DNA of 64,000 nucleotides, taken from positions 1 through 64,000 of the forward strand of contig JALDZX010000060.1 in assembly GCA_022813865.1 (NCBI GenBank), in the 5' to 3' direction. Position 1 is the first letter of the stretch; the number at the start of each line of letters is the position of its first letter. Position numbers and translations under genes: made by a program. A model generated the notes under the pieces. The model was not told the origin of the DNA. It saw only the letters and a list, made by a program, of their open reading frames with translations, and did not search any database. The DNA is from Xylographa opegraphella (lineage: Eukaryota). Shown piece after piece: positions 2,496 through 60,877 of this stretch.

Positions 2496-3814
2496 ATATC
2501 CTTTGTTAGTTATATTTGGAAGGTTCGAAAGGAAATAAAAAAATAAAAGAAAACTGGCAGAACCTTCGTTTATTTTTTGAAAACTTTTATCCCCGGGTAA
2601 TTATACTCGTCTCGAAGGCCCCCGTCGGGGGCGCCTTTTGAAAACTCGAGTTTATAGGCTCCCATTTTAGTATAAATAAATATTTAACATTAATTTTTTA
2701 CGGTAAGGAAACTTTTTAATGTAAAGAAATTACGACTTCTTAATTAATTATAAAAATTATATAAATGATTTAAAAAAGCGATTGTTTTATCGTAAAATTA
2801 AAAGTCAAAGTTTTATAAATCAATACGAATCGATACATAAAATAAAGATTTAATAAAAAACAAATAATGATTTATAACGCAAGATATTGAATTTATAATT
2901 AAAATTATTGGCATAATTTATATTGAGAAAATCAATATAGTACGTAAGAAAGTCGAAATAAAAAATATATTAATAAAATAAAATTATTTTATTGATTTGA
3001 ATACGATTTATTTAAATATTTAAAAAATTCGTTTTAAATAAAAGATTTAATTTTTTCAAATATTTAACTATGAAACGATTTAAATTTTCAGAATTCAATT
3101 CGCTTTTATATTTTTATTGTTGAGACTTTCTATTAAAAATATTAAAAATATTAATATTATAATATAACAAATGTATATTGAAATACGAAAATAATGCGGT
3201 TTTTTATTTTTATAAAAGTTTCAATTCGATTTTTATTATATATTAAGAGTAATATTAACTTTAAATTATTTTTGATTATTAAATATTACGTATTCAAATT
3301 TATAGTAAAATATTTTGATTATAAATATAATTCTTAAGTAATTGTTATATATTTATTGAATTACGTAAAAGGTGAAACAAATTCTTGAAATATAATTATA
3401 TTACAATTAATTCGATTATTATACGCATAATAGTAACCGTTTAACGTTTTTATACGCTTTTTGCGATAAAGGGCGTAAAATACTTATAATACTTTAATTT
3501 CGACGCGTTAAATTAATTGTACTAATAATATAAAATATGCAACGAATTTTAAAAATAATCAATACGTCGTTAAAAAATATATAAACTTTTTAAAACTTTT
3601 TTCAAAAATATATTCGTTAAATATTATTTTATAAAACGCCAGAACAACGCCGAGTTCGCGAAATTTAAGGGGAAAAAATTTATTTAAAATAATTAAATAA
3701 ATTTTTTTATTAACAATCTCGAGTATTTAATAAAGTTGATTAAATTTTGATTTACCTATTTAAACAAATACAATCATAAAAAAATAAAATAAATAAACGT
3801 TCATTTAACGTTTT

Positions 3815-3997
3815 TGTTAGAAATAGAGTCCCGGCCTGCCTGCAGGATAGCGAGAGCTCGGGCCGCCGTAGGCCCGGTGACGCTAGTGCGCGAGCATATA
3901 GTCTCGTAGTTGTTCATAGCTAATACAACACACTTGTTTACCCATATATTCTGCTAGAATGACCACTGCGCTTCAGTACCCATCGTACCTTTCAACA
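3815..3997 (+). mobile_element. Solo LTR, family F
   Basis: TGTTAG...TCAACA termini, TSD GTTTT. Inverted copy at 59895-60091. Confidence 0.9.
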
Positions 3998-4742: not shown

Positions 4743-7700
4743 TATCACGGACCGTTAAGTACTATAACAGAATAAGGCCCTAAAAGCAGCCCGAATAATA
4801 AAAAAACCTAGATACTCGCAGTTAATAATAATAATTATAGTATAAACATAAAGTACTAAAACGAATATTACTACTATTATTATAATAGCAGACTTATTAT
4901 ATAATTATAGCAGAAGTCCCGAAGACTCTGATCATATTTAATTTATATATCGAAGGCAATAGCTAATTTTAAATAAACAACCCTTTTTTTAATATTTTTA
5001 ATCGCTGCTACTATTTTACCCCCTATGTAAAGGAATTTTACCATTATATTTTAAACATTATTTTAGCAGAATACGCAGAACGGTTAAGGTAAAATATTCA
5101 TTTTAAAATACGTTAAACCTAAACGATCGCAAGTTCGACAAGTCAAAAAAAAGATTATTACGTTTAAAAAGCCCGACGACTGGTATAAAGAACGTATTAA
5201 ATTAAAAACGTTTCTTCTACAGATCGATGCGTATATATAAAACAATTAAAAACAGTTTTGAATAGAAAATAAAGTAAAATTCGCAGTAAAATTCGCAGTA
5301 AAATTCGCAGTAAAATTCTGTAAGTGCAAAATTTTTGTTTATATTTAACTATATTTATCTGACTTCCTCAACAAATAAAAAGCAGATCAGAAAACTACTA
5401 CAAAAAATCTTTGATGATTGAAACGAATTTCAAAAAAACGCATTTAAAAACGTAACCCTAAAAATTACTTTAAAAAGAATTATTCGTATTGGTCCAAAGG
5501 GGTTTTGCATCAAAATACGCCTTTAAGCTTTAAAGTATTATTATCAATATTAATTGAAACGAATCCGCCTAAACTGCGTAGTTTTATAAACAATTTAAAA
5601 ATAACATTAAAATAATATATTTAAGGGAAACAAACCAGAAATATTCAAAAAAAATCAAAAAAATCAAAGCTATAACAATCGACAATCGATATTATAAACG
5701 ACGTATAAAAAGAAAAATGGGCATCGTACGCTTATTATTTTAAATAAAAAACGAAAGAATTATAAATTCGATAATTTTTTTTATTATTTTTAAAATTCCA
5801 AGCTCGGTAGTGATAAATTTTGAAAGGAAATAAAATTAAATGCAATAACGAAACGCCCGAAATAGTGTCGAAAGAAATAAAAAATATATTAATAAAAGTT
5901 TAATTAAAGAAAAAAATACTATAATTACAATAGAAAAAAATAATTCGCTAAAAATTATCGTTAATAAAAGAAAACTACCGCTAACACTATTAAAAAAAAT
6001 AGAAAAAGAATACTTTACTTTAATAAAAGCTCGCAGCAATACTAATAAATTATAATAAGCTTTCGTGAACGGTATACTACGACGACAATTATACTGATTT
6101 ATTTAAACAATAAAAATAGTTCTTAATAATTCTTAATACCGTTAATAAAAAAGATAAACTGCAAGCAACAAGTAAAAAACTAAAATTAATATAATTTAAG
6201 AAATAATCAAAGTTAGCCAAAACGAAATTTAACGCTACGTCGCTAAAGTTATAGAACGAAATTTGTTTAAATCGAATAATTCAATTATCGACTTTTTACA
6301 GAAATTTACTACGTATATAATAAAAAAATCTTTACAATAAAAATCATTCAAAATACTCAATGTAAATTAAACAATACGGCAAGCAGGAAAAATCAAAGCC
6401 ATTAACGAATATATTGTAAATAGGCATTATCAAAACTTCGACGATATGATAATAAAAAACTTAAAATTTACTGACAATAAATAAAAAGAAAATTTGATTA
6501 ATAATAACGAAAATTTTAAACTAAAATTAATAATCGCAAGAAACTTATCTTGTAAAAAAAATATACGACTCGATATTAAACGTGCTTAAATTTTTTTAAA
6601 AAGCAGAGTTTTTTTAAAAGAAAATCAATGATTTTCGCGAAAGATTAATATCATAGAAAAAAAGGGAAAATAATAATTTTTTAACATATAATTTATTAAA
6701 AATACTATAATATTTTAAAAAATAAATTAAAATCAATAAAAATGCGGTTTAACTAGCTTACGACCTAGCTCGATATATTCAAATTAATATTAAAAACGAA
6801 TATTAAATATAAAAATATTATTAAGGAAAATATATTTATAAAATTTTATTTAGAATAAACGAAAAGTACCTAACCCCGAACGAAAAAAATACTTTTAAAG
6901 AATTTAAAAAAGTAACTTAAATATTTAACAAAAAATACGAGCGTTAGAGGTTTAAGCGATACGAAAGCAAAAAAGTTCACGCAAAAATTTTTAAATTTTT
7001 AAAATTTTTGGACCCCGCGTTAAAAAATTAGTAAGCCCTTTGATAAGGTCAACGAAGGCGTTTTATAATAAGCCTTCGAATAAATATAAAAGCACTTAAA
7101 TAATAAAGATTTATTATTTAAAGAATACCCTCATAGCAATAAATTATATAAAAACTCTTTAAGTAATAATTCGTATAGACCAGTACTGCGTAAAAATTTT
7201 AATAAACTTTATATCGCCGAATATCGCGAATAAAACTAGCGTCGATTTTTAAAAAAAGACATTTTTACTCAGTAGTAACGATAGGCGAAATTCTTTTAAA
7301 GTACAATCAGGAACAAATTAATTAAAATATCAAATATAGGAAAATTCGAATTGAATTATATATTATAGCTATATAATTTAATATTACTATAACAGAAGTT
7401 TATAATATGATATTAAAATTATTTTAATTTAAAAGAATGAACTTATAACTCAACTAGGCTAGGCAAATAATGTACTTTTTAAAAAAAAAAAATTTTGAGC
7501 GAAAATTTGTTAGAAAACGGAAAAAAATACGCGTTTTTATTCCATTAATTTAAAAAAAAATTCGAAAATATCCAGGACAAGCATAGATTTTATGAATTAA
7601 GTTTATTCAAAAAATTAGTACGTTATTTAACGAAAAAGTATCAAAAAGGCTTTTCCCGCATATTATCCGGAAAATTATACTATATTTATAAAAAAGGGGA

Positions 7701-10700
7701 TAGAGTTAAACAAGTTTTTAATTTATTTTTAATTAATAAAGAAGTTAAACGCACTACAAGGAGCATCTTAACGAAAATTTAAAAAATTTTTATTGAAAAT
7801 TCGCAGTCGTTAGTTAAATACCCTACTTTATTCGTATTAAAAAACGGCAAGTTTCGACTTTATATCGATTATCGAGAATTAAATAACATAATTATAAAAA
7901 ATAGTTACCCGTTATTTTTAATTTCGAAATTATAGAATCGACTTTAAAAAGCCATATAATTCACGAAATTTAATATATCAAAAGTATATAATCGAATTCG
8001 AATAAAGAAAGGTAGAAAATAAAAAACCGCTACAAAAACGCGCTTCGAACTTTATAAATGTACAATTATATCTTTCGGGTTGATTAACGCTTTAACCACC
8101 TTTTAAGCTTATATTAACAATATATTTTAAAAATATTTAAATGTATTCCTAATAGTATATTTAAATAATATACTAGTATATTTCACTGACGAAATCAAAT
8201 ATATAAAATACGTTAAATAAATACTGTATATTTGAAAAAATGTAAACTTACGTATTAAATCAGAAAAATACGAATTTTATAAATTAAAAAATCGAGTTTT
8301 TAAGTAATATCGTTTGAAATAAAGATTTAAAAATAAATCTATTCAAAATAAAATTAATTTTGAAATAATTTACATTTTACTTAATAAAAAATGTACAATT
8401 TTTTCTAGACCGGCGAACTTTTATCGAAAATTCGTAAAAAACTACTCTCGAATAATTTAGTACTTAATAAATATAATTAGAAACAAAGTATTATTTCAAT
8501 AGAACGCTTTTATGCAAAAAGCATTCAACAAACTAAAATATAAATTTAATACAAAATTAATACTAATCATATTTAATTCAGGCAAAGAAATTCTTATAAA
8601 AATAAACTTTTTAAATTTTGTCATGGGAGTATATTTAAATTAAAAAAAACGACAAAAATGTCACCCAATAGCGTTTTACTTTAAAAAGTTTAATACATTA
8701 AAGCAAAATTATAAAATTTAACATAAAAAACTACTAGCGATTGTCGAAAAATTTAAAGAATAAAAAATATACTGCGAAAATTTATATATTCTATTTAAAT
8801 ATATATTAACTAAAAAATTTAATATACTTTGCTACGACCAAAGTTTCTAATGAAAAACAGATTGAATAATTCGAAAAACTATTAAACTACAACTTCGAAA
8901 TCCACTATCAAAAAGAATTTAAAAATGCAAAAGCAAACGCTTTTAACAGACGATTTAACTATATAAAAGAACGACTAAAAACTAAATAGTCAGTTTTGCA
9001 AAATACAGACAAGAATACGTTAAAATATAATTATTTATTTATAATTACGATAATGATCCAGAACCACGATTTAAAAATAAAAATTAAATCAGCTTACGTT
9101 AAAAATAAGCAAGTATAAAGAATTCTTGAAGAAAAATAACAAAAATGTACTACCTTCAACAACGATTTAATACTGTTTTAAGGATCAGTATATATACTTA
9201 GCTGTATAATAAAAGAAGTTATTTAAGAATATTATAATAAACTAATAAATAACCATTTATGTATTAATAAAACAATTAAACCGATAATTCGAATTTACTA
9301 CTCTTTATACATAAAAAAAGTTAAAAGGTATATTAATAGATATAATTTGTGCCACAAAACGAAATCAGCAAAGTATTAATCATATAAATGATTTAAATCA
9401 TTAAAAATACCCTTAAAATTATAATCTTTGATAGCATTAGATTTTGTAGTTAAGTTATTATTATCGAAAGAATTTATATAAAAATTTAATATAATTCTAT
9501 TCTAACGATTGTAAATAAATTTACCAAAGAAGTTCGTTTTATTTTATATATAAAAAACTCGAACACAAAGAATTTAATATATATCTTTTTAAAATATACA
9601 GTCTTTATATAGTTACTGCTGAATAAAATCATATTTAATAAAAATAAACTATTTACATCGAAGTTTTGGCAAATATTAACTAAAGAATCAAAAATAAATT
9701 ATAAACTATCAATTAAATATCACCCGCAGATAAATAAACAAATAAAAAATATAATAGTCGAATAATATTTCTATACATATATAAATTATCGATAAAATGA
9801 CTAAATTATATTACTATTAATAGTATAATTAATATACAACAATAATACTAACGAAATTACTAAATAAACGCTATTTTACGTCAATCGTAAATATTATATA
9901 AAATTGTTTCAAGACTCGAGGCCTATAGAAAAAATTAACAAGTTAATAAATATATTAATTAAAGAATTTCGACGACTATATATCGACTTGAAAAAAAACA
10001 TTAGATTCCTAAAGTTTAAATTAATATTCTACGTAAACCAATATAAATCTAGGGGCCCTATATTTAAAAGGGGAATTAAAGTTTATCTACTTTAAAAAAC
10101 ATCGAAATAACAAAATCAAGCAGAAATGAAATTATATTAGAATTAAATTTTTTAGAATCATTCGCAACATTAAGAATATAAATTTTGAGCTTAAATTATT
10201 GAAAAAAATATACTTAATATTTTATAAATTACAACTAAACGTAGTATCGCCAGAAATTTCAAAGTTGATATAAGTATCGAACAACTAACTATTTAATAAA
10301 ATAAAAGCAGAAATAAAAAGTAAAGAAATTTTTTAAATAACAGTTAAAATTTCGACGATAATATATATAAGTATTTTATTAAATAAAAGAAATATTTAAA
10401 TAACGAGAATACTTGGGAATTAGTAGTTAACCTTAACAATTATAAAATACTTATTGAACAGTACCATCAGAAAGTACGAACTTCAGGGGAAAAAGGCAAT
10501 AAAAGTAAAAACCCGAAATCGACGTTATTAAAATTAGATACGAGACTTCCTAGAAAAAATAGCCCCCGATGTCGATAAAAAAGTTTTTTTTTCTTTTTTG
10601 TTACCTTTTATTTTTTTTAAGGTTTAAACAACTATTTTCGCCTTACGCTTTATTAAATATTATTTTATATTATTATTCGACGACGTTTTAACAAGGCAGC

Positions 10701-11300
10701 CTTTATTTGTTTTTTCGCCGTTGTTAATTTAACGTTCAAACGACTTCGTTTTTTTTATCAACCTTTGCGAAATTGAAATTAAAAAATATTTTTATATCGT
10801 AAAAACGACCACGCTTAAGGCAGATAAAATACGATTTAAAATAATCGAAAATTACGCAATTTAATTACGCCTTTTAACAGGTTACGTATTTAAACGCCAC
10901 ATAAATACCTCAGTATTTTATTTTATAATAATTATTTTTAACGTAAAAGCGATAGAAAAAAAATACTTTTTTTAAAAATAAAAACCTCAAAGGGGGGAGT
11001 TAATATTACGAACCGCCAAGTATTATAATAAAGTAAAATTTTAAGGGTAACCCGGATAATAAAAAAGCCTAAATCGAGCAGTTAATAATAATAATTGTAA
11101 TATAAGCATAAGGTATTAAAACGACTATTATTATTATATAATTATAACAAAAGTCCCGGGGACTCTGGCTATATTTCATTCATATATCGAAGGCAATAAC
11201 TAATTTTAAATAAACAACCCCCTTTTACCTCCACCTTTTTTAAACATCTTTGATCGTTGCCATTATTCTGCCCTCTGTTTAAAGGAATTTCACCATTACA
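4743..11300 (+). mobile_element. RIP-inactivated Ty3/Gypsy chromovirus (element 1)
   Basis: LTRs 4743-5048 and 11004-11300. TSD ATATA/ATATG. PPT AAGGGGGGAG at ~10990. RT motif VYLNNILVY (RIPped YLDD) at ~8155. Integrase YHPQ at ~9718. Chromodomain relic IK*KKY..NENTWE at ~10380. Confidence 0.9.
10560..10960 (-). pseudogene. RIPped antisense ORF in Gypsy element 1: Zn2Cys6-like cluster plus coiled-coil-like tail
   Basis: 10888-10799 reads YVTC*KA*LNCVIFDYFKSYFICLKRGRFY. The Tyr codons at positions 1, 20 and 30 are one G>A change from Cys. ORF ends are approximate. Confidence 0.6.
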
Positions 11301-17521: not shown

Positions 17522-20500
17522 TTAATTTCGCGATCATATATCGCAGGGTTATTTTAATAAGTTAATTAATTTTTTAAACTAACCGTTAATTTAAAAGTAA
17601 TATATAGTAAAGTATAGCGATTTTACTTTTGGAATTTAAAAACCCTTTTTTTAAGTTTCGGTAAAAACTTTCGATCCCTATTTGATAATATAATATTCAG
17701 AATAAATTATTTAATAATTTAAAAATATACAAAAAACTTTTTAATTTAATTCTTTGCCGTATAAATACTTTTCCCTAATATTATATCAATTTTTTACTAA
17801 ATTTCTATATTATAATAAAGCAGTAATCGTATTTCTATTATAATTTTAATAAAGCGAGGATAAAATCTATTATTATAAAATAATAAAAAATATTAAGCAT
17901 TAAAATTAGCTAAAGATTTCTTTAAAATTTATGCCGCTTAATTTAATTTTTAAAATGTTATTAATAAAATTTAATATACGCTTTAAAACAATATTCAAGC
18001 TGGTAAATATATAAAAAAATCGTAGTTATTTTATAAATATAATAATATTCAGTATAATCGTATACATCGTACGTTATATTTTATATAATACGTTTTTTAT
18101 TGAATCGTACGAAATATACAGTTTTTTCGATTATTTTTATAATTTAATAAATAAAAATACTTATTATTTTTTTATATAGTAAAGATATCGCGTACGTATT
18201 CAAAATATCGTTTTTATAATTTTTTTCAAAGATTTTATGCTAATGAGTATCGCTTTCGTATTTAACAATGAATTTAATTTCAAAATTAAATAACATTTTT
18301 ATTATAATTGTTTAATAATTATATAAATAATTAAATTTATTATAAAAATTATTATAGTCGTTGCGCGTATTGTCGCTATTTAATTTAAAAATAACGTTTA
18401 ACATAATATAAAATCAATCGGGCTTGTACTTAATAATAAATTTAAATTTTTGAAAATATTTTAAAGCTTTGATAAATCGTAGATTAAATTTTTTAATCTT
18501 TATAATTAACAGGTTAATTTAAATTACGATAACAGTAATTATAAAATAATTAATACATATTATTGCGATTGATTTTCTTACGACTTTTAATATATATTAA
18601 ATTTTTTTAATAATCCAGATTAAATATGCTATATTTATTTTAATAATCCAGATTAAATATGCTATATTTATTTTGATAAATTAATATCTTTTTTTATATT
18701 GATTAAGGCTTTGCTAAAAAAATATAATATATTGAATATTAAAATATTTTAATATAAAAATAGATTTATAATCTTAGCGTTCATTATTTAAAAAAATATT
18801 TTAACATCGAATAAAATAATAAACGTGTTTTTATATTCGTTAATATTTTTAATATAACAAATATAAAGTTTTATTTCGCGTTTTTAAAACGTATCGATAT
18901 CGTAGAAAAGCCATCGTAATAAATTAAAATACGCCAAAATAAACAAATTATTAAAAACGTTTTTAAATTTTTAAAAAAATTCAGTTCAACTAAGGTTAAA
19001 TTATTTATAAATAAATTTATTGCCGGTTTTCGTTATACATTATTAACGTTATATTTTACGAAATTTTGATTAAATATTTTTCTGCGTTTTTTTTAAAAAC
19101 GATATTAAATAAATATACCTCGCGACGTAATTACAAAAATCTTTAATTATTTTTAAATATATTTCAAGTTTATATTATAGAAATATTTAAAAAAAATTAT
19201 TTTAAAATTATTTTCTATCATTATGAAATCGAAGATATTAATCTTTTAGCGTGATAAATTTACATTTAAATAATTTAAAAAAGATTTATTTAGGGCTAAA
19301 TATATATTATATTTAAATAAATACGAAGAAACTGCGTATAAATAAAATAATATTTTTTAACATATTTAAATAAATTACTGCGCTATTAATATACATTTTA
19401 CAGTAAATCTTATATTCTTTATAATATCGTTGATTTTTTCATATATAAACAAAGCTATTACAGTAATTTATTAATATAATGTTAAATATTTTTTGTTCTG
19501 ATAAGACACGACTGAGAGGCGATTTTAATAAAAATTATAAATTTATTATTACTAAAGAAATTAATTATAGTTTATTATCGATACATATATTGCTTTGCGT
19601 ATTTAATAAGGTTTTAACCAATGTTGTGTGAAACAAGGGTCGGAGGAACCTTATTCCGGCTGCCTCCTCTGCCTCTGTAGAAGGCATAGAAGGAGTGACC
19701 CCTGAAACCTCGATGGCCTCCTCGGGAGGTATAGAAGGCATTTTAAAACAGGACTTTTATATAAAGCGAAGGATTTCCTTACTGTAAAAGGCGTATTCAA
19801 TTCATGTTATAATCTTAGAATAGTAAGCTTCAATATAAATCTCTTATACGAAAACTATTATTCTTAAAGAATTATTAAACTGTTACTATGCCTTCCTATT
19901 TATTTATTAACGAATTCAACCAAGATCCTTAGTCGAAATATATTAATAAGAAGCAGAATCGTATCACTTTAAACATTTTTAAAATAAGTGTATCAGGAGC
20001 ATAATCAAACTTTCCCCCAAGTATTATAAAAAATAATAAAAAAATACCACAGAAGAAAATAATCGCGTCAAGGTAAAAAGACCTAATAAGTATAAAGAAA
20101 ATAGGGATCATTTAAAAAATTAGCTTATATAAATGGATTTATTCTTTGAGTTCCAAGGAAATAGTATCCCAGAGTTAAAAAAATCACTTTTCGCTATCAC
20201 GTACATGCGAGGACAAGCTTAGAAATAAATTATCTTTTATTTTAAGAAATATTTCGAAAACCCTAACAACGAAGACTTTAGGTGGTTAAAAAAACTTTAC
20301 AACGTTTAAGGTCGAAATTCGAAAAGTTTTCAGATCATTAAACAAGAAAAACACGGCAATACGAATCATACAGCATTTTAGACAAAAGAGATTTTGTGTA
20401 AAATACTCAAGTCGATTTCAGCAGTTTGCGATACAGACTGAATAAAACGATAATACTTTGATTGTAATATACCGTAAGGGACTTAAAGATTCGGTAAAAA

Positions 20501-23257
20501 ATAAATTAATAAGGACTGGTGCTGCAATCAAGACTATGGATCAGATAATCGAAATATGCATAAAAATTTACGACAAGCTATAAAAAAAAGCCATAGAACG
20601 CAGACACGAAATCGAAGGCACAACAAGAATTAAATCCTAGAAAAACGGCTTTCAAGCAAAGAAAAAATCGTACAAAACGTCGAATTCTTATGGACTGATG
20701 CCAATAGAGGTAAATGTATTTTAAAAGCAAAAGCAGAGTTTTAAGAAACAGCACTTACGGGGTAAAAAACCAGGGATTACCTGTTACGTATGTAAAAAGA
20801 TCGGCTATATTGCGAAGAACTGTCGGTCGAAAAACAAAATGCCTAGACCATAAATAAACGTACATTTAAAATTTTCGATCAAAACGAAATTTAGAAAAAA
20901 AGACCATCAGCTGTCTTTATGCAAGAAAGAGAATACAGAACTCATCTTAATTTCAAGCAATCAGGCCAGTACAAGCAGAAACAACGAAAAGGTTGATACC
21001 CAGAAAGACATTACTTTATATCAAGAAGACAGTCTTTGGGTAGAAATCAACAACAACGAAGAAAGCAACTCAAATATTAGCAGCCTACAAATCGGGGGGG
21101 ACCCCAAGGAACAAAATATCGAGTTAGACAATCCCGACAACTAGACCTATAAAGAAACTGACGAGCCAAAAAAGTCGAAGAATACAGTAAATAATCACTG
21201 GGATTATCGAGTAGATCCAGAACATCCACGTTACGAAATAATATATTATAGTGCTTATACAAGCATTTACTACAGAGTTTATTAAAAAGATCATAAATAC
21301 AACGGCCGCATAGATAAAGTCTGTTATAAAACTTAAATTTGGGATAAATGCTTTAAAAACGAATGCCCATGGCATTTAAGAGAAATACGAAGGCATTTAT
21401 CCTTTCCGGAATATATACAAGAATTCTGCAATAACTTAATTATATACGGAACCCGTCCAGAGAAAAATAACTACGGAAACTCGTTATAACAATGGTATTT
21501 CCATGGATGATGTATAATATACATAGAAGTCAAAGAAATTTACGGCTATCTCGAACAGGGAAAAAAATAATCCCATATATTATGAAAAAATATATAAAGA
21601 TTAATATAATATACCCCAAAACACACTGGAAGGAGCCAGACTGTGTAAATTTTATAAAGATTTCGATTATTATAAACAGTTATTGAACAACCGTATTATT
21701 AAATATTAGAATTAATTTAAATTATATATTCAGCACTTTCGCGAAGAGCTGTGACTTCGAATCATTAGTTTTGGAATAGATTCAAATAATAATGGCCGAC
21801 GGGTTATCAAGAAAAAAAAAGAGCGACACACAAGATCATTTCCTGTCGCTATTTATTAATATCATGAAAAAATAATCTTTAGTATAATTATCATGGCCAG
21901 GTACTATATCATTCTAGGCTTATTTTAGTAAATCAAGCATAATATATTCCTAAACTGGGACAGAGAAGTACTTATCAAGAAGCATATTAATCGCGTTATT
22001 AATATATATTCTATACATCGACAAAGAACGATAATAAATAAATAAAAAAACCGAAAACCGGTCGAGATTATAGATATTTTATTTTTAAATAAAAACGATT
22101 TTACTCTAGGGTTCGGCTTGATACGCACTAGTATAGATTAGTAAAACAAAATAAATCAGAGTTTGAAAAGAAGTAACGCATCTTTTGACATCCCTAAAGA
22201 GTATAAAGCATGGACATGACTTTTTCAGGAAAAGGAAGGACTTAATGCTCTACCTAAGCACCAACCTTAGAACTGTGAGATTAACGATATGTTAAAAAAA
22301 GGACTTTAGGAGCTTTGCAAGTACATCGAAGAAAGTCTAAAAAAGGGATTTATACGCGAATCAAAATTCTTAGCAGAATATTCAGTAATATTTATATTTA
22401 AGAAAGACGGAAGCTTGAAACCTTGCATCGATTATCGAAAATGAAACGATATTATTATTAAAAATCGATATTCGCTACCGAAAATTAGCGAGATACGGAA
22501 TAAACTCGATAAAGCCAAAATTTTTATCAAGCTCGACCTTAAGGGCGTATACAATTTAATCAGGATAGAAAAAGGTAAGAAATAAAAGACTGCATTTCGA
22601 AGCAAATATGGGTATTATAAGTACCAAGTTATGCCTTTTAGGTTAATCAACGTATTTATTATTTATTAAACGTTAATCAACAACCTATTAAAGGCGTACT
22701 TGGATTCAATAATGATAATCTATTTGGACGATATACTTATTTACTCAGAATTAGCAGAGGAACATATAAAATATATACAGAAAATACTTACTTATTTAGG
22801 AAAAGCAGGACTACTTTTTAAATCAGAAAAATATAAATTCAGTAAAAACAAGGTAGTCTTTCTAGGATTCGTATTTAATAAAAAAAATCAAAATAAACCC
22901 AGGAAAGATAAAGACCATACTCGAATAGCCTTAACCAATAATAGTAAAAAAAATTTAAAATTCCTAGGATTTGCAAACTTTAATAGAACTTTCATTAAAA
23001 ATTACTTTAAAAAGGCGATATCTTTAACAAACCTGATACATAAGGATGTAAGCTTCAAATGGGATTCGAATCAACAACGAGCCTTTAATATTTAAAAAAA
23101 AATTCTATACAACCACCAGTTTTAATAATATTCCAGGTAGAAAAACCTGCAAGAATGGAGATAAATGTATTAAATTTAGCCATAAAGGCATGTTTATTGC
23201 AGATGCAAAATAGGAAATAACACCCTATTATATATTATTCAAAAAAATGTTACAAGC

Positions 23258-23506
23258 TGTAACGGCGTGTTACATGGCACCTTAACAAGTGATAGACGGA
23301 ACGGGACTAAAGCGCGTCCGGGACTNNNNNNNNNNNNNNNNNNNNNNNNNNNNNNNNNNNNNNNNNNNNNNNNNNNNNNNNNNNNNNNNNNNNNNNNNNN
23401 NNNNNNNNNNNNNNNNNNNNNNNNNNNNTATTATTCTAGGTTGAAATCGCTCACCTATAGCTGAGGTTCTAGGCCTGCTTTTCTGGTGAGATAGCGAGCC
23501 GTAACA
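23258..23506 (+). mobile_element. Solo LTR, family A, inside the RNase H region of element 2
   Basis: TG...CA termini, TSD CAAGC, spans an N gap. Confidence 0.9.
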
Positions 23507-25105
23507 CAAGCAGAACAAAATTATAATATTTACAATAAGGAATTACTTGCTATGTTAATATAGATTTAAAACTGAAAAGTATATATAGAAAGTTGTTCAG
23601 AACTGATTATATATATAAATTATAAGAATTTATTAAGCTTTACCACGATAAAAGTACTTAACAGAAAGTAAATACGATAAGCAGAACTATTAGAATAATA
23701 TAAATTCAAAATCATATATATATCAGGTAAAAATAATGGAAAAGCAGAAACACTCAGCAGAAGAAAAAACCTTATAAACAAGGAATTAATAAATAAAGCC
23801 CTATTACGAAAGAATAGCAACGGAGCTTTTATTCTAACAAAACAAATTGTAGCTTTCGAAATAAAAGGAATTACAAAAGATTTGACAGAATCGTCAGCAG
23901 AAAAAATAATCAAATATTATCACGATAAGACAATTAATAGTTATTTAAAAATTATTAAAACGATAGAATTTATAAAAAGAAACTATGAATTCCCGAACAT
24001 GAAAAAACATATAGAAAAGTATATCAAAAAGTGTATACCATGCCAAAAGAATAAATCAACAAGAAACGTAGTATATAAAAACATTTAGTTTTAAAAGGTA
24101 TTAAACAGACCATAGAAATAGATCTTGATCGACTTTATTACCAAATTGCTAAAATTAGAGTATTCAATAACGGGATAAAAGTACGACTTAATAATAATAC
24201 TTATAAATAAACTTACGAAATACTTTATTATTATTTTTTAAAGAAACGTTTACAGTAGAATAGTTGATATTCCTTTTGTTAAACAGATTGATAAGAGATT
24301 ATGGTTTTTTAGCTAAAATTATTTCCGATAGGGACAAATTGTTTACATTCAACTTTAAAAGACTCCAATGTCTAAACTAGGAATTAAATTAAGAATGTCA
24401 ACAGTTTATTACCTACAGACAGATAAACAAATTAAAAAAATAAATCAAAACTTGAAAGTATACCTACGGCGCTTTATAAATTCAAAACAGAATAATTAGG
24501 TATTATTATTGCTTTTAGAACAACTGGCATTAAATAATAAACAATCTGCGATTACAGGACTATCGCCTTTCTTCGCGAATTCAGGGCGTCATTCTTAATT
24601 ATTTAAAGACAAGAGACCAGAACCTAATGCAAACAAAGCAATAATATTAGCCAAAGATTTAAAGACTACGCATAAGGCGTTATTCAAGAAAATCGAACAA
24701 AGTAACGACAAATTCGCTGCAACAAGATATAAAGATATCAAGAATGGACCTTAACTAAAGAAGAGGGATAAAGTTTACCTTCTTACGAAGAACTTGATAA
24801 TCAGCAAGAAACGAAGCAAGAAACTTAATTATACTAAAGTCGGACCATCCTTAATTAAGCAAGTCAAAAGACCATTTAATTACCTTCTCAACCTGCCAAA
24901 AGATGCGAAAATATACTCAGTATTTTATATGTCCTTATTAGAACCTGCGGACGCCAGTACTCCAGTATAAATAACCTTTTAATATAAAAAAAAAGAAGAA
25001 CAGGAATTCGAAGTGAAAAAATCTTGGACAAGCAAGGTCAGAGATATTTGGTTAAATAAAAAAGTTACCCAGAATCGAACAATACTTGGGAACCACTTAC
25101 TAGCC

Positions 25106-25612
25106 TTAGGAATTGCCAGGAACTTCTTTAACAATATTACCAAGCAGAGCAAGAATCTTAGAAGAGGAAACTTCCAAAGCCTCAGAAAAAAAAAAGGGAG
25201 GAGAGAGGGCCCCGTAGGAACCGCTGGTAAGGGCTTTCGCCTCTCGTCGTTTATTATCTTCCAGGGCCTCAATGTTGAACATTTCGCGTTGGAACATTTC
25301 CCGTTTCTCGTCCTTAATATTCAAAAGCCGACGTTCCTCTCGACCTAAAGCCTTTCTTAACTTAACCACGCAACGTTTTATTTTACTCTTCCATTTCTTT
25401 AAATCTCGACGGTCGGCATCAATAATAATTAGAAAATATTAAGCTTTAACTGCTACGCAGTTCGCGCAGAATTCTGACTTTAAAGAAATCGTATAGAGAA
25501 AACATTCTTTAATACAACGATCATAAGGGTGCATTGTGAATTTTCCTTTATTATAAATACTATGCGACTGAACCTTTCGATGATAAGCGCTGGTTAATTT
25601 GTATTTTAATAT
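25106..25612 (-). pseudogene. Antisense ORF of Gypsy element 2 (~168 codons, one RIP-type stop): Zn2Cys6-like cluster plus coiled-coil-like tail
   Basis: Single frame ...MHPYDRCIKECFLYTISLKSEFCANCVAVKA*YFL...DADRRDLKKWKSKIKRCVVKLRKALGREERRLL, continuous with ORF 25106-25369. Confidence 0.7.
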
Positions 25613-28600
25613 AATACAGAGAAGCTACTGGAATTCTTTCGAAGCAAGAATCTGGCGGGGGAAGCTAGTAATAAGGTTTTAAACAATATTGTGTGAAACA
25701 AGGGTCGAAGGAATCTTATTCCAGCTGCCTTTTCTGCCTTTATAAAAGGCATAAAAGGAGTGACCCCTAAAGCCTTGATGGCCTTCTCGGGAGGCATAGA
25801 AAGTATTTTAAAATAGGATTTCTATATAAAGTAAAGGATTTCCTTACTATAAAAGGCGTATTCAACTTATATTATAATCTTAGAATAGTAAGCTTTAATA
25901 TAAACCTTTTGTACGAAAACTATTACTTTTAAAGAATTATTAAACTGTTACTGTGCCTTCCTATTCATTCATTAACGAATTCAACCCAGATCCTTAATCG
26001 AACTATATTAATGAGAAGCAGAATCGTAACAGTATTATAGTAATAATCTTTATTTATAAAAGAATAAAATATAAATTCGAAACTAAATTTTTACTTAAAA
26101 ATTGTATATTAGCTACGACACGATTTTTTAATTTTTTTTTAACTTTTTTCTGAATTACGAAATATAAATAATTAAATAGTATAGTATTTAAAAATTAATT
26201 CATTTTATTTTAAACATAAAATTTATTAAATTATTTATTAACAATTTCGCGGTTTTTAGGGGCGAATAAATATATTTTAAAAATTGATTTATAAATTAAT
26301 AATCAATTGTTGATTAATAACATCTTTTTTTATTTTGCTTTTAAAATATTTATTACATTATTATTATTTATCTATAACCGGGGGAAATTATTTATTATTT
26401 CGACAATTTTTACTATAGTGATTAATTTTTATTATATATAATAACTTTATGTAAAAGTATTCGTTTTATCTCTTCGACGATATATTATATCAAAAAATAT
26501 TTAAAATTATAATTAAAATTAAAATATATATATTTTTTATTATTTTTAAAATATACCGCCATATTTGCTTCGTTTAAAAATATTAAAAAATATTTATTAA
26601 TATTATATTTTACAAGATTGCTACGGTTAATTTTCTATAATATTATTATAAATTAAAACATATTATTTATTATATAAATATAAAAAAATTACGTTTACTA
26701 CGTATATATAAAAGTTTTTATATGTTAATTCGAAAAGAAAATTACGATCGAGGGGAAATTGTTTAATATATTAAACTACGATAGGTGTTTTAATATAAAA
26801 TAAAAATATAACGTTTTTTAAAATAAAAATACTTTTTTGAATTTTTTGTTAATACGTAGCGTAATAACTATATTAATAATTATATTTTTATAATTATTAA
26901 TAATTACTCTGTTTTAGCGAGGATAAAAATTAAGATTTTTAGGCAAAAAATTTACTTCGATAAAAATTTTTACTTTAAAATTCTCTATAAATCACGTTTT
27001 TTAAACGATATAAAGTATCGCCAGCGTATCGTTTGCGAAAATACTAAAAAAATAAATATTTAAATTAATATATTTACTAATTCGATATTGATCAACATTA
27101 ATTCTTTAAACGATAAATAACGAAATAATTTTTTAACATATTCGCCTTTTAATTTTATTCGAGTAAAAAATCTTAATTAACTAAAATTATCGTATAGTTT
27201 ACATCGAAACATATTTAAACAAAAAATATATTTAATGAAAGGTTTATTTAAATTATAATATAATATAATTTTCGAAAGCTTAAATCACCCGTTTGTAATT
27301 AAACGACGTTTAATTTTAACATATAGAAATAATTACGATAAATTGTCGATTGCTATAAACTCTGATCTGGCTATTTTTAAAAAAAAAATAATATATATTT
27401 AATTTTTTTTTGAAATGAACGAAAAGGTTATACTAAAATTTGAAGATTGTATGATACGTATTGTGTTAATATTCAAATATTACGAAGTATACTATAAGTT
27501 TACTATTTTTAAGAGGGGTTTAAGATTATTTAAATAAATATCGTAACTTTAATTTTATATATTATACATTTATTCGTTTTGCGCGTTATAATAACTTTAA
27601 TTATAATAAATTTTATAGTAACTTTAATCATAATAAACTTGAACTTATTTATTGTTAAATTTCTTTTTAATATTAATAGCAGTAAATTTTATATTTTTAA
27701 TATTTTTAATATTTTTAACGTTTTTAACGTTTTTATTATAATAAATTATTAATCATCACTTCGAGTGCTAATAGTTATTTTAATAGTCGTTTTAATTTCT
27801 TAAAAATCCTTTCAAATATTTCGGCGCTTTTTCGACCGCGTTGTTCGTATTTTAAATTTTAAATTAATTATTTCACGTATTTTTTTTAAATAAATAACAA
27901 CAATTGCCTTGATTGTTGAACTACCTTGAAAAAGCGTTAAAATAAAAAACGGCTAAAATAATCTTGAAAGAAAATTTAAATTTTTTATAAAGAGATAAGT
28001 TTACAAAAATTGTAAATTTTTTTTAGATTTTTTGAAATATTCTAAAAACCATCTCTCAAAAAATTCAAAAAGCCTTGATTTTAATTATTTTTAAAGCTAA
28101 ATTTAAATTAAATTTAATTATTTAATTACGAATAATTAAACGATTTATCTTTATTAAATTAATTTTTTTATTTCGATTTTAGAGTTTTAAGAGATATTTA
28201 TATAAAAATAATAATATTTAGCTTATTTAATAACTTTTTTAAAAAATACATTAATATATATTCGGGTTTAAATTACGAATTTAAATTTATTTTCGCTTTA
28301 ATTATATTCTTTTATAACAATAATAAATATATCAATATATTTTACGCGGTTACGGCTATTTCGTAAATTTTTCATAATATAACGCGTATTAACATATTTA
28401 TTAAAAAGTTTCGCTCGAAATCGTTCGAAAACGTCGTTTAAATATTTTACAAAATTCTTTAATGCTATTTAAATAAGCTATTAAATTAAGTTTTATAATT
28501 TTATTATTTTGAATGTTTTATTATAATTCGGCCTCCCCACGGAAATACGTATTTAAATTTTATCGTATTTTTATTATATTTTTAGTATTTACTGCGATAC

Positions 28601-46832: not shown

Positions 46833-47650
46833 ATGGATACTCTGAATGTTCGTCCTTCACTTTCCTGCACAACAGTGCTCTGATTCAGGTATAGATGGCC
46901 ATTAACGATTTCATACTCAAGCCGCAATATACTGAGTATCTTGCGCTCATCAAAGCTGCACGTAATGGTGCGGTCTACGGTGCCAAAGTTCGCTTTCCGC
47001 ATGCTCTTGTGTAAGATTTGCTATCTCGGGGTAGGCAAGAAGCTTGTGTACTTATACCTTTGGTGCACACAGCATGGTATTTCTCTTTCGATCGGGCTCG
47101 TAGGTTTCGTCCTTCTCCTCCATAATCAAACCTTTCGCGTTATGCATTTTGTTGACTTCTTTTGGGCCATAGTCTGAAGGAGAAGCTTAGGATTATCTTC
47201 AAAGCGACTCGGACGCATGCGCACAATCTTGCAACATTTGCTGTCATTTACAAAACTACCGTCTTAATTCTCCGCCGTGCTTCGCGGTCTGGGGAAGAAG
47301 CATCGTACCACACTTTCCTAGCGGGTCTCCTGGGTGGCTATATTGTCTTTGGTCGCAACTCTCAATCAAGCGTCAACCAGCAGATCGTCACCTATGTCTT
47401 TGCGCGCGTCATACTTGCATTGGCAAGGATGTTTGTGCAGAAAGGTGGTATACTGCCGCTGCAGCTTCGAGAACAACTAGCTGGAAATGCATGGCCAACG
47501 TTCGCGGCGGTGAGCTGGGGAGCGGTGATGTGGCTCTTCCGGTGGTATCCAGAGACAATACAACCAAGTATGAGGAGTAGTATGCAGTATATATATACCA
47601 ATGCAGATCATTGGGGCGGGTTTCGGGATTTCCTTATACACAACAAATAG
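46833..47650 (+). CDS. Peroxisomal membrane protein 4 (PXMP4/PMP24, Tim17/Tim22/Tim23 family); exons 46833-46847, 46895-47010, 47073-47099, 47173-47650; 211 aa
   Basis: Spliced protein has RNGAVYGAKVRFPHALVMVFLFRSGS, THAHNLATF, SSVNQQI and SSMQYIY, characteristic of fungal PXMP4. Exon phases are consistent. Confidence 0.92.
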
Positions 47651-48187: not shown

Positions 48188-50858
48188 TCACTCCTCCATG
48201 GGCAACAAATCGCTCATCATCAGTTGCTGCGACCAATTTGCTGGTACGTTGAACGTCGACAGGTCCTGGAACATGTCCTCGTCCCCGGTGGTATTCGTAC
48301 TCGAACAAGCATCTCGACTGTCAAATAGAGAAAAGTCGCGTGTAGGCTTTATTACTTCGTGATTGAAATCAACAAACCCTTCATCTGCTGATAGATCGTG
48401 AGAATATATCGAATAAGGAGAGTAGAGCATGGCGTCTCCCTGTGCGCCTGGGGAGAGAGAAGGAATCTGACCACATGGTGGTGCTTCTTGAGATATTGAG
48501 GGGTTCCGGCTAAACGCATCGAAGGGATGCGTTTGAACCGATGTAGCAGGTGTGATAAGCTGAACGTTAAGAGGGGCTACATCGTGATCCATGTTGCTCC
48601 AATCAAAGTTGTTGCCAAAGATTGGTTCCTCTTCATGCGAATTATCGGATGTAGATGGAAGAACCGGAGGCTCGCTCAGCGCTGCATCCCAGGACGGGCG
48701 ATGTGATTCGGTAGAGTAGTCTATCATATTGCCCGCACCGAAATGATCGTTCTGCCCATTCCATGAGAAAGCTGGATCAAATGCACCGAAGGTGTCAGCA
48801 AAGCCAGTCATCCCGTCGTTTGCATACGGCCCAGCCAATTCTGTGGCAATTCTGGATCCGCTAGTAGTGTCGACGTCACGATCTGTATATGATGGTTCGT
48901 AATAAGCTGTTACATCGTTGAACTCTGATGTAGCAGCATCAAAGATGTAAGATCCTGGAGTAGATACTTGGGGCGTTGCCGGAGTGATTCCATTCTGAGA
49001 CTTCTTGCCATTCTTGCCATTGTTCTTGGAGCGAACGTATTGCCACCCGTGAGCCTTCTCCATGTGTTGTTTGCAATTGCTTTCACGTTTACTCTCGTAA
49101 GGGCATGGCGAGTATTGACACTTATACATCGACGGAGTAGATGAATGCTTGTCGTTAACATGACGATCCCGCTCTTTCTCTGTTGGCCATCCATAAGAAT
49201 GGTACTTGCAGCTGATGTCATTGCACTTCCACGGTCGAGAGTGCGTCTTTTCATGCTTACTGTGACACAAATAAGCAATTTAAAAGCTATCAAGGTAAGG
49301 AAGTAGCTTACGTCAAGTCACAGGGTCGCTTGAAGGCCTTGTTGCACTCATTGCACTTCTGAATGTCCTTGACAGTAGGCTTAGCAGACTTTCGTCGCCG
49401 AGCCATGGAACGTAGGACATCTTCATCGGAATCTTCGCTAGCCGATCTCTTTATGCCATGCTGATACGAAGCAGAAGTATAATCAATAAAAACCTCTTCA
49501 CCCGTTCGCAGCGAGATTGATCGACCATTTTTCGTCCTAACAAGCTCAGCTTCGCGACCCGTCTGGCATAAACCACCAAAAAGATGAAGCCGTTCTTCGT
49601 CACTACTTTATGTTAATTGAGGAAAAGGTATACACTAGGATGGTGACGCCTACTCAGGTTGCTCCGGCTTTGCAGGCTCCAAAGCTAGCCTTGCTCTTGA
49701 TGCTGCTAACATTGTTGCGTATTGGCGGACCTGTTCCACAAGATCAAGGAAGTAACCGTTAGTATATGCTCTGTCAGTGGGGCGTCGTTGATCATGTTCG
49801 TTGAGGTGGTTGACCGTTGTGTGTATACACTGGATCGACGTCTCGCAGAAGTTGAGGAACGAGGTTTTGCTTGCCGACCATTTCTTTTCGCCAAAGATCA
49901 GATCCCAGACCAAACTCCAAACCGCAACGGAGAGAAAGGCTTACCGGTGCCAACCATAACAGAACTTTTTCTAAATCACGTAGGCACGTAATCTCCTTTC
50001 GTGCCACACGGTACGGGATTCCGCTGACAAGAGGATGGAAATCTTTCAACTTATCCTCGCGAATGATAGGCAGTATCAGGTGCTTTTGAATTTGCCTGCA
50101 AGCGTATTCACTCAACGTATGTTGCATGCCCGACACAGATCCGGGAGTAGCTACTGTAAGCCCGTTAATACCAGTCTGAACACAGGCGTCGTTCAAGGCC
50201 GAAGGATCCGTGGAGATGGCGTTATTACTATTCTTGTTGCTGCTGCAACGCTCGTATACTTCACGGTGTATAGGTAAGTCACAATAACGGTGATTGAAGA
50301 ACTAGCCATACCTTGCTTGATTCGTGCATGATCTCCGTCCAACGAAACTTCTGAGCTGCTCACAGTAGAACCGATACCACTGTCCGACGTGTGATGTTTC
50401 TTAGATACAAGTCGTTGATGCGATGCCCTGGAATCAAGGTAGTCATCGTTCAGATCTTGATCTACCACCATAACTTCAGAGTCATCGACTCTGCCATACA
50501 GCATGAAGAGAGGGATGGGCGGGGTATTGGCAACCAAAGTTTCTTCGCTATCCGATGAAAATGTTTCCAGGCCAGAAAGGCTTCGATCAACAGCACCTAT
50601 GATCTGCGCAATGCGATTGTCGTTACTGGTGAGGGCGCCCAAATCTGCAGCAGATGTGAACGATCTTCTCGCCAACGACGGTATACTCAATACGGGGTCG
50701 TGTTCTCCAATTGGTGACGTTGGGTTATGAAACGTGCCATTCTTTCTCAAGGAATGAGAGGCCGTGGTGGTAGACAAAGGTGATGTGGCGAGTACCGTGG
50801 TGACGGGGCAAGTATTGTGCAGAGTTCGGCGTCGAGGATTAGATTTTGGGGAATCCAT
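48188..50858 (-). CDS. ace1: C2H2 zinc-finger transcription factor ACE1/SltA; exons 50858-50312, 50258-49945, 49883-49654, 49602-49312, 49259-48188; ~817 aa
   Basis: SNPRRRT..LRKNGTFHNPTSP, SDSGIGS, CLRDLEK, RAYTNGYFLDLVEQVRQYA, and three fingers KRPCDLTKHEKTHSRPWKC...TEKERDRHVNDKH...SKRESNCKQHMEKAHGW. GT-AG phases are consistent. Confidence 0.92.
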
Positions 50859-55049: not shown

Positions 55050-55298
55050 TGTTACGGCTCGCTATCTCACCAGAAAAGCAGGCCTAGAACCACAGCTATA
55101 GGTGAGCGATTTCAACCTAGAATAATACAAGGAAGCAAGTTTANNNNNNNNNNNNNNNNNNNNNNNNNNNNNNNNNNNNNNNNNNNNNNNNNNNNNNNNN
55201 NNNNNNNNNNNNNNNNNNNNNNNNNNNNNNAGTCCCGGACGCGCTTTAGTCCCGTTCCGTCTATCACTTGTTAAGGTGCCATGTAACACGCCGTTACA
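55050..55298 (-). mobile_element. Solo LTR, family A
   Basis: Reverse complement of 2265-2495, TSD GTATT. Empty homologous site at ~18248. Confidence 0.9.
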
Positions 55299-55844
55299 GT
55301 ATTACTTGCGTATCTAACAATAAATTTAGCTTTAAAATTAAATAACATTTTTATTATCGTCATTTCATAATTATACAAACAGTTAAATTTACTACTAAAA
55401 ACTATTATAATTATTACGCGTATTATCGCTGTTTAATCTAAAAATAATATTTAATACGATATAAAATCAACCGGGTTTGTATTTAACAATAAATTAAAAT
55501 GTTTAAAAAATATTTCAAAACTTCAACGAGTCGCAGATTAAATTTTTTAATATTTATAATTAATAAATTAATTTAAATCGCGATAACAATAATCGCAAAG
55601 TAATTAATATATATTATTACGATTGATTTCTTTCCGATTTTTAACATATATTGTTTTTATAGTAATAATTTAAATCAAATACGTTATTTTTATTTCAATA
55701 AATTAATTTTTCTTTTCGTTTTAATTAAAATTTTACTTAAAAATATAATAAAATAAATATCGAAATATTTTAATATAAAAAACAAGTTTATAACCTTAAC
55801 ATTTATTATCTAAAAAAAATTTCAATATCGAATAAAATAATAAA

Positions 55845-59894: not shown

Positions 59895-60091
59895 TGTTGA
59901 AAGGTACGATGGGTACTGAAGCGCAGTGGTCATTCTAGCAGAATATATGGGTAAACAAGTGTGTTGTATTAGCTATGAACAACTACGAGACTATATGCTC
60001 GCGCACTANNNNNNNNNNNNNNNNNNNNNCCCGAGCTCTCGCTTAGCAGCTCTCGCTATCCTGCAGGCAGGCCGGGACTCTATTTCTAACA
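59895..60091 (-). mobile_element. Solo LTR, family F
   Basis: Reverse complement of 3815-3997, TSD AAATT. Confidence 0.9.
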
Positions 60092-60877
60092 AAATTGAAT
60101 TTACAAATATTTTAAAAGTTAAAATTTTGAAAAAAGTAAACTTTATCAATCTTTAAATTACGTGTGATAAAAAATCGTTGAATTCGCTTAAAAATATATC
60201 ATTTAAAAAGAAATGCAAAGTAATATATAAAAATCAATAAAAACAAAAATTTAAAATTTTTAATTAATAACTACGATTCGTTTTAAGCAGTCGATTTCAA
60301 AAATAAAGATAAATTATTGTCAATATTAATATATAATCGAAAGTTTAATATACGTGATAATATATACCAGTTTTAATATTGTTTTTATTTTAAAAGAAAT
60401 CATATCAATATTTTAATAACATTATAAAGTACCATGGTCGCGTATTAAAAACTTTTATTTATTATATTTAACTAACGATTAATTTGAAAATAGTTTATAA
60501 AAATAATAAAAAAGAATTATTTTATTTATTATTTCGATTTTAACTATAAAATAAATAAATAAAATCCAATTTTAATTTTAAATAAATATAATGAACTTAA
60601 AGAAAAATTAACTGTTTAAATAAATTAAAGATAAACATTAATATTCATTTTAATTATTGAAATTAAATATATAATTTTATGAAGCTGCGGTGGAAAAACT
60701 TTAAATTATTTAATTATTTAAAAACATTGGCTTTCGTAAATATTTAAATATCGATTGAAATAATATTAATATTATAAAAATAATCAAATTTAAAAAAAAC
60801 TCGTCGAGACAATTAAAAAATTAATTGATTATTATTAACGCTGGTTAAAAACGTTTATATTTCCGAAAAATTGAAAT

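Follow-up and report, generated by a model that had tools for sequence, protein, structure and literature searches.

The minus strand of positions 10799-10888 in a 64,000-nt stretch of DNA from Xylographa opegraphella (GenBank assembly GCA_022813865.1, contig JALDZX010000060.1, positions 1 to 64,000; hereafter, the window) contains a regularly spaced series of cysteine and tyrosine codons, located in a degraded retrotransposon (element 1). This series is probably the N-terminal six-Cys module of a dead accessory gene, mutated by repeat-induced point mutation (RIP), which is antisense to gag-pol and belongs to a lineage of ascomycete Ty3/Gypsy chromoviruses. A second series of the same kind lies in another degraded element of the window (element 2). 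Both copies are pseudogenes without present function: TGY codons have become TAY, stops have arisen and, in element 1, the frame is broken by frameshifts. The module of element 1 had been pointed out in a reading of the window made by a model from the letters alone (hereafter, the sequence-only reading).

Two degraded chromoviruses share an antisense six-position pattern

When the six reading frames of the window were scanned for the strict pattern [C/Y]x2[C/Y]x6[C/Y]x8[C/Y]x2[C/Y]x6[C/Y], two matches were obtained, each with three Cys and three Tyr: 10799-10888(-) in element 1 (Y,C,C,Y,C,Y) and 25436-25525(-) in element 2 (Y,C,Y,C,C,Y, plus one extra Cys). Block shuffles that preserve dinucleotides, 300 in all, gave on average 0.063 matches per window; 19 shuffles contained one match and none contained two. 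A looser Zn2Cys6-type pattern separated less cleanly from chance, with five matches observed, a shuffle mean of 1.01 and a shuffle maximum of 5. The sequence-only reading had stated that both elements share the x2-x6-x8-x2-x6 spacing, and had offered a high frequency of the pattern in shuffled sequence as grounds for dismissing it; the spacing is indeed shared, these are the only two strict matches in the window, and the pattern is rare in the shuffles. Retranslation of the minus strand of 10640-10900, which reads ...KYVTC*KA*LNCVIFDYFKSYFICLKRGRFYDIKIFFNFNFAKVDKK... (asterisks, stops), reproduced its reading of the module exactly, and the string LTTAKKQIKAALLKRRR was found in a different minus frame from that of the module.

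Both matches are antisense to gag-pol and lie between the chromodomain and the 3′ long terminal repeat (LTR) of different RIP-degraded chromoviruses. The distance from the first Cys codon to the junction of the polypurine tract (PPT) with the 3′ LTR is 112 nt in element 1 and 139 nt in element 2.

The window is mainly very AT-rich (GC content 0.16-0.25), which gives it the look of RIP-mutated ascomycete repeats, and self-comparison revealed one LTR pair for each element. In element 1, the repeat-detected part of the 5′ LTR (4790-4983(+)) is 83.5-88.9% identical to 11051-11220. The 3′ LTR occupies 11000-11220(+); the BLAST pair covers 11051-11220, and the inner edge was set from the junction with the PPT (10992-10999(+)), a junction (10992-11000) that recognisably resembles the LTR-end/PPT junctions of intact loci. 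Between the LTRs lies a RIP-degraded pol (7783-10515(+)), recognised by its domains and its similarity to other pols, with reverse transcriptase (RT), RNase H, integrase and a C-terminal chromodomain (10360-10473) on the plus strand, the set that characterises chromoviruses. Degraded matches to RNase H, the integrase zinc-finger and the chromodomain were found on the plus strand and none in the minus frames; in Pfam, RT_RNaseH_2 was matched at 4.7e-14, and Chromo scored 19.3 bits in this degraded copy, against a cut-off of 25.1. Element 2 contains a degraded gag-pol (20046-25186(+)), the 3′ end of which overlaps the antisense gene by roughly 110 nt, and a 3′ LTR (25665-26028(+)) with the complement of a PPT just inside it; the repeat pair 19604-19963/25669-26028 shows 88.9% identity. 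As they stand, the pol remnants of the two elements are 30-39% identical, and no DNA similarity was detectable between their pol-LTR spacers. Elements 1 and 2 therefore belong to different families, as the sequence-only reading had held.

The remnant in element 2 belongs to a family of intact proteins

The antisense remnant in element 2 spans 168 codons (25106-25612(-)); its start reads ATA, it has one in-frame stop, and three of its six Cys read Tyr. For searches, the frame was read through this single stop, which was replaced by X. A full HMMER scan of 1.84 billion representatives gave six matches, the best of which (P0001) had E=9e-15 and 46% identity. A word-indexed protein search returned no match for the read-through and only P0001 itself when P0001 was the query, and Pfam gave no family at E≤10 for the raw read-throughs of either copy. 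The relatives are intact proteins of ~145-185 aa, all with CX2CX6CX8CX2CX6C, and the MHPYDRC...Y...CANC...Y of element 2 corresponds to MRPC-x2-C-x6-C-x8-C-x2-C-x6-C in them. The sequence-only reading had proposed that less-mutated relatives would carry Cys at the positions now read as Tyr; for element 2, intact homologues do carry all six Cys at the x2-x6-x8-x2-x6 spacing. In a RIP-aware alignment the remnant scored 72.2 bits against the family profile (columns 5-175), which places it in the family, and its module ranked first of 124,214 positions in module profile scans. The PPT/LTR junction of element 2 is like that of intact loci, with the gene start 52 nt from it.

A search with the family profile retrieved 35 proteins, and conservation was read from the 17 full-length members. 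Across these, little or no variation was seen at the Met of the initiating region, the six Cys, one Leu and an Asn-Ile pair. The intact product, of ~170 aa, has a basic N-terminus (MPP..KRS...RRR) followed by the CX2CX6CX8CX2CX6C module, a long helix (~75 residues) ending in a RELQNIEELEADER-like conserved motif, an acidic/hydrophobic stretch (DDLLFDVSSE.FE.P..FDW) and a C-terminus reading ...AEAPGSSQGS. In a sub-group variant, represented by the loci L039 and L004 of the contig scan described below, x8 and x7 replace the two x6 spacers. The sole named member is a hypothetical protein of Lasallia pustulata, for which UniRef gives the name Zn(2)-C6 fungal-type domain protein. In the ESM Atlas, the clusters nearest to the family are annotated as 'hypothetical protein', belong to Ascomycota and have no common Pfam family. 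Family members occur in many fungal assemblies.

Decay of the kind proposed for the window by the sequence-only reading, Cys to Tyr, was also seen at RIPped loci of the family: at the heavily RIPped L038, L043, L046 and L071, all six Cys read Tyr. A conserved Trp (SP.EW), about 15 codons past the sixth Cys, is an in-frame stop at most RIPped loci (L002, L006, L008, L011-L030 and others), the change being TGG to TAG or TGA, a RIP signature.

The gene has a fixed place in intact elements and is under purifying selection

In a profile scan of metagenome contigs with alignment A4, 340 pattern matches were found, of which 89 were confirmed as relatives, and these gave 80 loci; a search of metagenome and viral contigs with the first alignment (A2) had given no match. 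At 77 of the 80 loci, the opposite strand carries the C-terminal end of a Gypsy pol, within -118 to +420 nt of where the gene ends. The two genes are convergent and usually overlap (median 58 nt at these 77 loci), the antisense gene covering the last ~60-120 nt of pol. The pols are 32-100% identical to the reference pol, with a median of 41%. The exceptions are one locus with just 106 nt of flank and two identical loci that are interrupted after the fifth Cys. In the latter two (L075/L076:10001-10749), unrelated sequence cuts the gene and the nearest pol is 3 kb off, probably reflecting an insertion into the element.

The locus L039 is an intact element. Its gag has Retrotrans_gag and a CCHC knuckle, its pol has protease, RT, RNase H, integrase, SH3 and chromodomain (of the domains, only rve did not exceed its cut-off), and a 171-aa antisense open reading frame (ORF) shares 116 nt with pol. 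L004 is organised in the same way. An LTR pair was present in 15 of the 17 long loci examined, the inner LTR ending 42-118 nt (median about 49) before the gene. A conserved order is seen at the junction, the LTR end being followed by the complement of the PPT, about 35 nt and the ATG. The family is thus found antisense, starting ~50 nt inside the PPT/3′ LTR junction and converging on the end of pol; from this start we infer that the 3′ LTR must contain or adjoin the promoter.

The ratio of nonsynonymous to synonymous substitution rates (dN/dS) in the part outside the pol overlap was 0.10 for L004/L005, 0.06 for L004/L007, 0.10 for L005/L007, 0.21 for L031/L039 and 0.26 for L001/L039. Synonymous sites are close to saturation, and ten other pairs yielded no estimate on that account. 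The antisense gene is under purifying selection. It might alternatively be a fragment of a host transcription factor, captured by single elements once or several times, or its frame might be a by-product of pol. Modules of this type do otherwise occur in host transcription factors of fungi. This account is, however, at odds with the same position and orientation in 77 of 80 loci, beside pols down to 32% identity to the reference, with an overlap confined to the last ~60-120 nt of pol, and with dN/dS values of 0.06-0.26 outside it. Both origins are considered very improbable for the gene as it is now found; capture may well be its ultimate source, in which case the event would be old and single. 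The proposal of the sequence-only reading, a conserved third gene of one chromovirus lineage and not a chance capture, is sustained by this constancy of place and orientation and by dN/dS values far below 1.

Upstream of the gene, 25-30 nt away from where the 3′ LTR ends on its inner side, short palindromes were observed (L005:9800-9863, L007:6520-6581, L039:380-425, L048 and L053). Their sequence is GGACC-N3-GGTCC in one sub-group and, with matching changes in the two arms, GAACC-N3-GGTTC in another. The corresponding site of element 2 (window 25690-25715(-)) carries GGAAT-AAG-ATTCC; in other sub-groups the palindrome differs or none was found. These palindromes may be a binding site or a hairpin.

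The probable copy in element 1 is recognised by mutation-aware alignment

Element 1 is far more decayed than element 2, with a GC content of about 0.22. Its probable remnant of the antisense gene occupies 10582-10891(-) and corresponds to profile columns 29-130, with three frameshifts near 10767, 10757 and 10665. RIP was scored with a likelihood model that ignores sequence context; it replaced a maximum-over-ancestors scheme that was too permissive. When the frame given by the sequence-only reading was aligned to the family profile (176 columns) with gaps and RIP changes allowed, element 1 reached 30.9 bits, the best value of all AT-rich windows (null of 2,700 windows: mean 12.5, standard deviation 2.2, maximum 22.1). 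The Cys columns, together with a Gly-Arg pair and an Asp, contributed most of this score. A frameshift-tolerant RIP-aware scan gave 34.6 bits (null maximum 24.3), and 23.6 bits when the six Cys columns were zeroed (null maximum 22.1); in neither case was the value reached by any of 558 windows. The frameshift-tolerant path runs from the module to the frame of LTTAKKQIKAALLKRRR and then to the frame holding 10597-10737, which is aligned to the helix-end motif. As an ungapped second block, this motif ranked 22 of 125,054 in element 1, a suggestive result that is not significant.

Among the matches listed, sibling copies covering 10754-10852 were found on contigs of the run that contains this DNA and is probably its source; two further runs of that study, X2 and X3, contain almost nothing of the stretch. 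In two sibling contigs the plus strand has C at 10800 where the window has T, so that the sixth codon of the module reads TGC and not TAC. These sibling copies also bear further C-to-T changes of their own. The restoration of cysteines in less-mutated copies, foreseen by the sequence-only reading, was therefore seen for element 1 in two siblings, at the one Tyr position among the rows listed, the sixth of the module.

The rival account of these data is that element 2 alone carries the gene, the run of TAY and TGY codons in element 1 having arisen by chance in AT-rich RIPped DNA. Several observations weigh against the reading adopted here, and most of them would suit such a run. In fixed register, the non-Cys columns of element 1 (41 of the 47 in the module profile) ranked about 51,000 of 124,214, a random level, and two other scorings gave similar results; the membership of element 1 therefore rests on the Cys pattern, its position, one restored Cys and the gapped and frameshifted alignments. 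A single strict match did arise in 19 of the 300 whole-window shuffles, and with the Cys columns masked element 1 exceeds the null by little (23.6 against 22.1 bits). The second-best ungapped module match in the window, 10597-10737(-), is also in element 1, 160 nt further on. All 80 contig loci, moreover, come from one assembly series (related accession prefixes), so that the breadth of the family across fungi rests on protein matches from several sources. On the other side, the run in element 1 is on the right strand and its first Cys codon lies 112 nt from the PPT, compared with 134-139 nt in element 2 and the family. About 500 of about 128,000 positions would qualify in this way, and the expected number of chance matches there is about 2.5e-4. 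In addition, no AT-rich window outscored element 1 in two profile scans, of which one disregarded the Cys columns, and the siblings of element 1 restore Cys 6. A chance run is considered improbable, and element 1 very likely carries a decayed copy of the same antisense gene.

The match at 10597-10737(-) is register-specific and has Cys at one of the six positions. It was rejected as the true Cys module of element 1 on account of this single Cys and because it lies too far from the LTR. It appears to be the later helix-end motif; in the family itself, the end of the module and this motif look alike (..RKCDLVVSPLE.. vs ..KRK.ELVERELQNIE..), a likeness that would explain the odd second match. Weak second-block matches near 14.4 kb(+) were rejected as a third copy since no pol or gag similarity was found there. 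RIP-wrecked copies can in this way be placed in families by a mutation-aware profile.

The module resembles a Zn2Cys6 cluster, and the protein may act as a regulator

Zn2Cys6 binuclear clusters follow the consensus CX2CX6CX5-12CX2CX6-8C, which the Cys spacing of the family fits. Pfam Zn_clus (PF00172) was matched by 9 of the 17 members at E≤1 (best E=0.0033), the matches covering half of the model; the score of P0004 (17.3 bits) is below the gathering cut-off of 21 bits, and none of three locus-encoded members matched at E≤0.1. When the family profile was compared with PDB sequences, coiled coils came first and Put3 appeared at E=1.9; with a module-only profile, no Zn2Cys6 chain was matched among PDB sequences. 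An AlphaFold2 model of P0001 (22 sequences; predicted local distance difference test score, pLDDT, 79.8) contains two short helices (residues 31-36 and 50-55), both of which start directly past the first Cys of a CxxC pair, and a long helix at 65-142. Among the matches listed by Foldseek for this model in the PDB, all were Zn2Cys6 domains (Pho7, Leu3, Gal4, AlcR, Lac9, Put3, Hap1, Ppr1 and Cep3), with weak E values of 0.45-7.7, and VIA-align superposed it on Leu3, Lac9 and Gal4 with a root-mean-square deviation (rmsd) of 2.0-2.1 Å over 33-36 residues. Since the Pfam, profile and fold tests were only partly positive, the module is called Zn2Cys6-like and the family is not filed under PF00172.

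Residues 25-145 of P0001 were also modelled as two copies with zinc, without an alignment. The score was 0.50, compared with 0.01 for the best of three controls; of the proteins solved as one-chain pairs, 21 of 30 attain 0.50, and of those solved as single chains, none of 23. The dimer runs share at least 98% of contacts, with a partner pLDDT of at least 84. The modelled dimer is an antiparallel coiled coil in which residue i faces about 188-i (78 with 110, 92 with 96). The two-copy model supports homodimer pairing, without amounting to proof of it.

On these grounds, the module would bind two zinc ions as a divergent Zn2Cys6-type cluster, the long helix would form a homodimer, and the protein would be a nuclear, element-encoded regulator of transcription, acting most likely on its own LTR. 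Zinc binding, dimerisation, a nuclear location and control of the element's transcription from its LTR are put forward tentatively, as a set of predictions that we doubt slightly more than we believe. The likeness to Gal4, Put3, Ppr1, Leu3 and Hap1 would consist of the six-Cys spacing, the two short helices at CxxC pairs, a long dimerising helix and an acidic tail. The family differs from PF00172 factors in being retrotransposon-encoded, in falling below the Pfam threshold and giving no profile match, in having no long 'middle homology' region, and in the antiparallel arrangement of its modelled dimer.

The main rival to a transcription regulator is a role that does not involve DNA binding. 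The gene would then be real and its module a zinc- or disulphide-stabilised knob for protein interaction on an antiparallel coiled coil, with a function in particle assembly, nuclear import, integration targeting or the countering of host silencing. The unmet Pfam threshold and the lack of a sequence match to solved Zn2Cys6 domains suit this alternative, as do three features that speak against a Gal4-type regulator. The module is net acidic in some members (P0001 and P0004). The stretch between Cys 2 and Cys 3, from which in Gal4 a lysine pair contacts DNA, was found by inspection to have no such basic pair in the family. Finally, an antiparallel dimer would place the Cys modules at opposite ends, about 75 helix residues apart, unlike the parallel dimers of the Gal4 type. 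The knob is harder to reconcile with a spacing that fits the Zn2Cys6 consensus, with the UniRef name of one member, and with Foldseek matches that, among those listed, are all Zn2Cys6 domains and superpose at about 2 Å over the whole small domain; the succession of basic stretch, cluster, coiled coil and acidic tail is also the order of a minimal Gal4-type activator. A non-DNA-binding knob is regarded as possible though doubtful. The fullest version of the regulator proposal, in which the lineage would encode its own Gal4-like factor (a zinc-cluster coiled-coil dimer with an acidic activation tail, expressed antisense from the 3′ LTR, binding the LTR-end palindromes and setting the balance of sense and antisense transcription), is considered rather unlikely as a whole.

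Relation to known antisense genes

The brtn gene, said to have been originally described by Zhao et al. in 2011 (Virology 417:248), offers the closest parallel in position. Passages of papers that cite it present brtn as an additional antisense gene between pol and the 3′ LTR of Boty-like Gypsy elements of Botrytis cinerea, reported also in Sclerotinia (PMC8365987, PMC7264820, PMC4227169, PMC5987419). One of them, a review, lists it beside plant antisense genes, with its function given as unknown (PMC7264820), and another describes a Monilinia transcript that carries a chromodomain and pol end together with similarity to BRTN (PMC5987419), which fits a tail-to-tail overlap. As far as these passages go, brtn and the present gene share the antisense place between pol and the 3′ LTR of a fungal chromovirus, and the accounts given there mention no cysteines, zinc or Zn2Cys6-type domain. 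The supplements of PMC8365987 do not mention brtn, PMC3248453 mentions neither zinc nor antisense, and 'brtn' in PMC9409477 was rejected, being an author's name and not the gene. Judged by position and orientation, and not by sequence, the present family is probably the brtn kind of gene.

Antisense ORFs between pol and the 3′ LTR, conserved within families and listed with unknown function, have also been described in the plant Ty3/Gypsy elements RIRE2, Grande, Retand and PvRetro13; their position and orientation are the same, and the passages concerned make no mention of a six-Cys module (PMC7264820). In the full texts searched, which leave subscription journals largely outside, no paper was found linking a zinc-cluster domain to a gene of a fungal LTR-retrotransposon. 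The sequence-only reading was silent on the Zn2Cys6 spacing, on the published brtn, and on the decay of element 1 outside the Cys columns.

HBZ of human T-cell leukaemia virus type 1 is a dimerising basic leucine zipper (bZIP) transcription factor whose antisense gene is expressed from the 3′ LTR. The present gene would resemble it in logic alone, as an antisense gene beside the 3′ LTR with the predicted role of a coiled-coil nuclear regulator; HBZ differs in being a bZIP protein of a vertebrate retrovirus, unrelated in sequence, and the comparison is one of analogy and not of kinship. Were the Gal4-like factor real, it would parallel, in fungi, retroviral regulators such as HBZ or Tas, and it might be what brtn encodes. 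One antisense extra gene here gains a definable protein family, a fixed place in the element and purifying selection, which turns 'function unknown' into testable questions on zinc content, dimer state, LTR binding and reporter activation.

Other features of the window

Gene islands interrupt the AT-rich DNA at 46-51.5 kb and at both ends of the window. The first of these holds a host C2H2 zinc-finger gene (48188-49279(-)), the nearest Atlas cluster of which (score 0.94) has ACE1_beta in 55% of its members; its nearest Atlas clusters belong to Ascomycota. The same GC-rich island also holds a 164-aa host open frame at 47156-47650(+).

Short stretches with 97-100% identity were found at 2264-2496, 23257-23506 and 55050-55302, and likewise between 3812-3997 and 59895-60094. 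They adjoin N-masked runs, which hide their middles, amid strongly diverged RIPped DNA, and their near-identity is odd for RIPped repeats.

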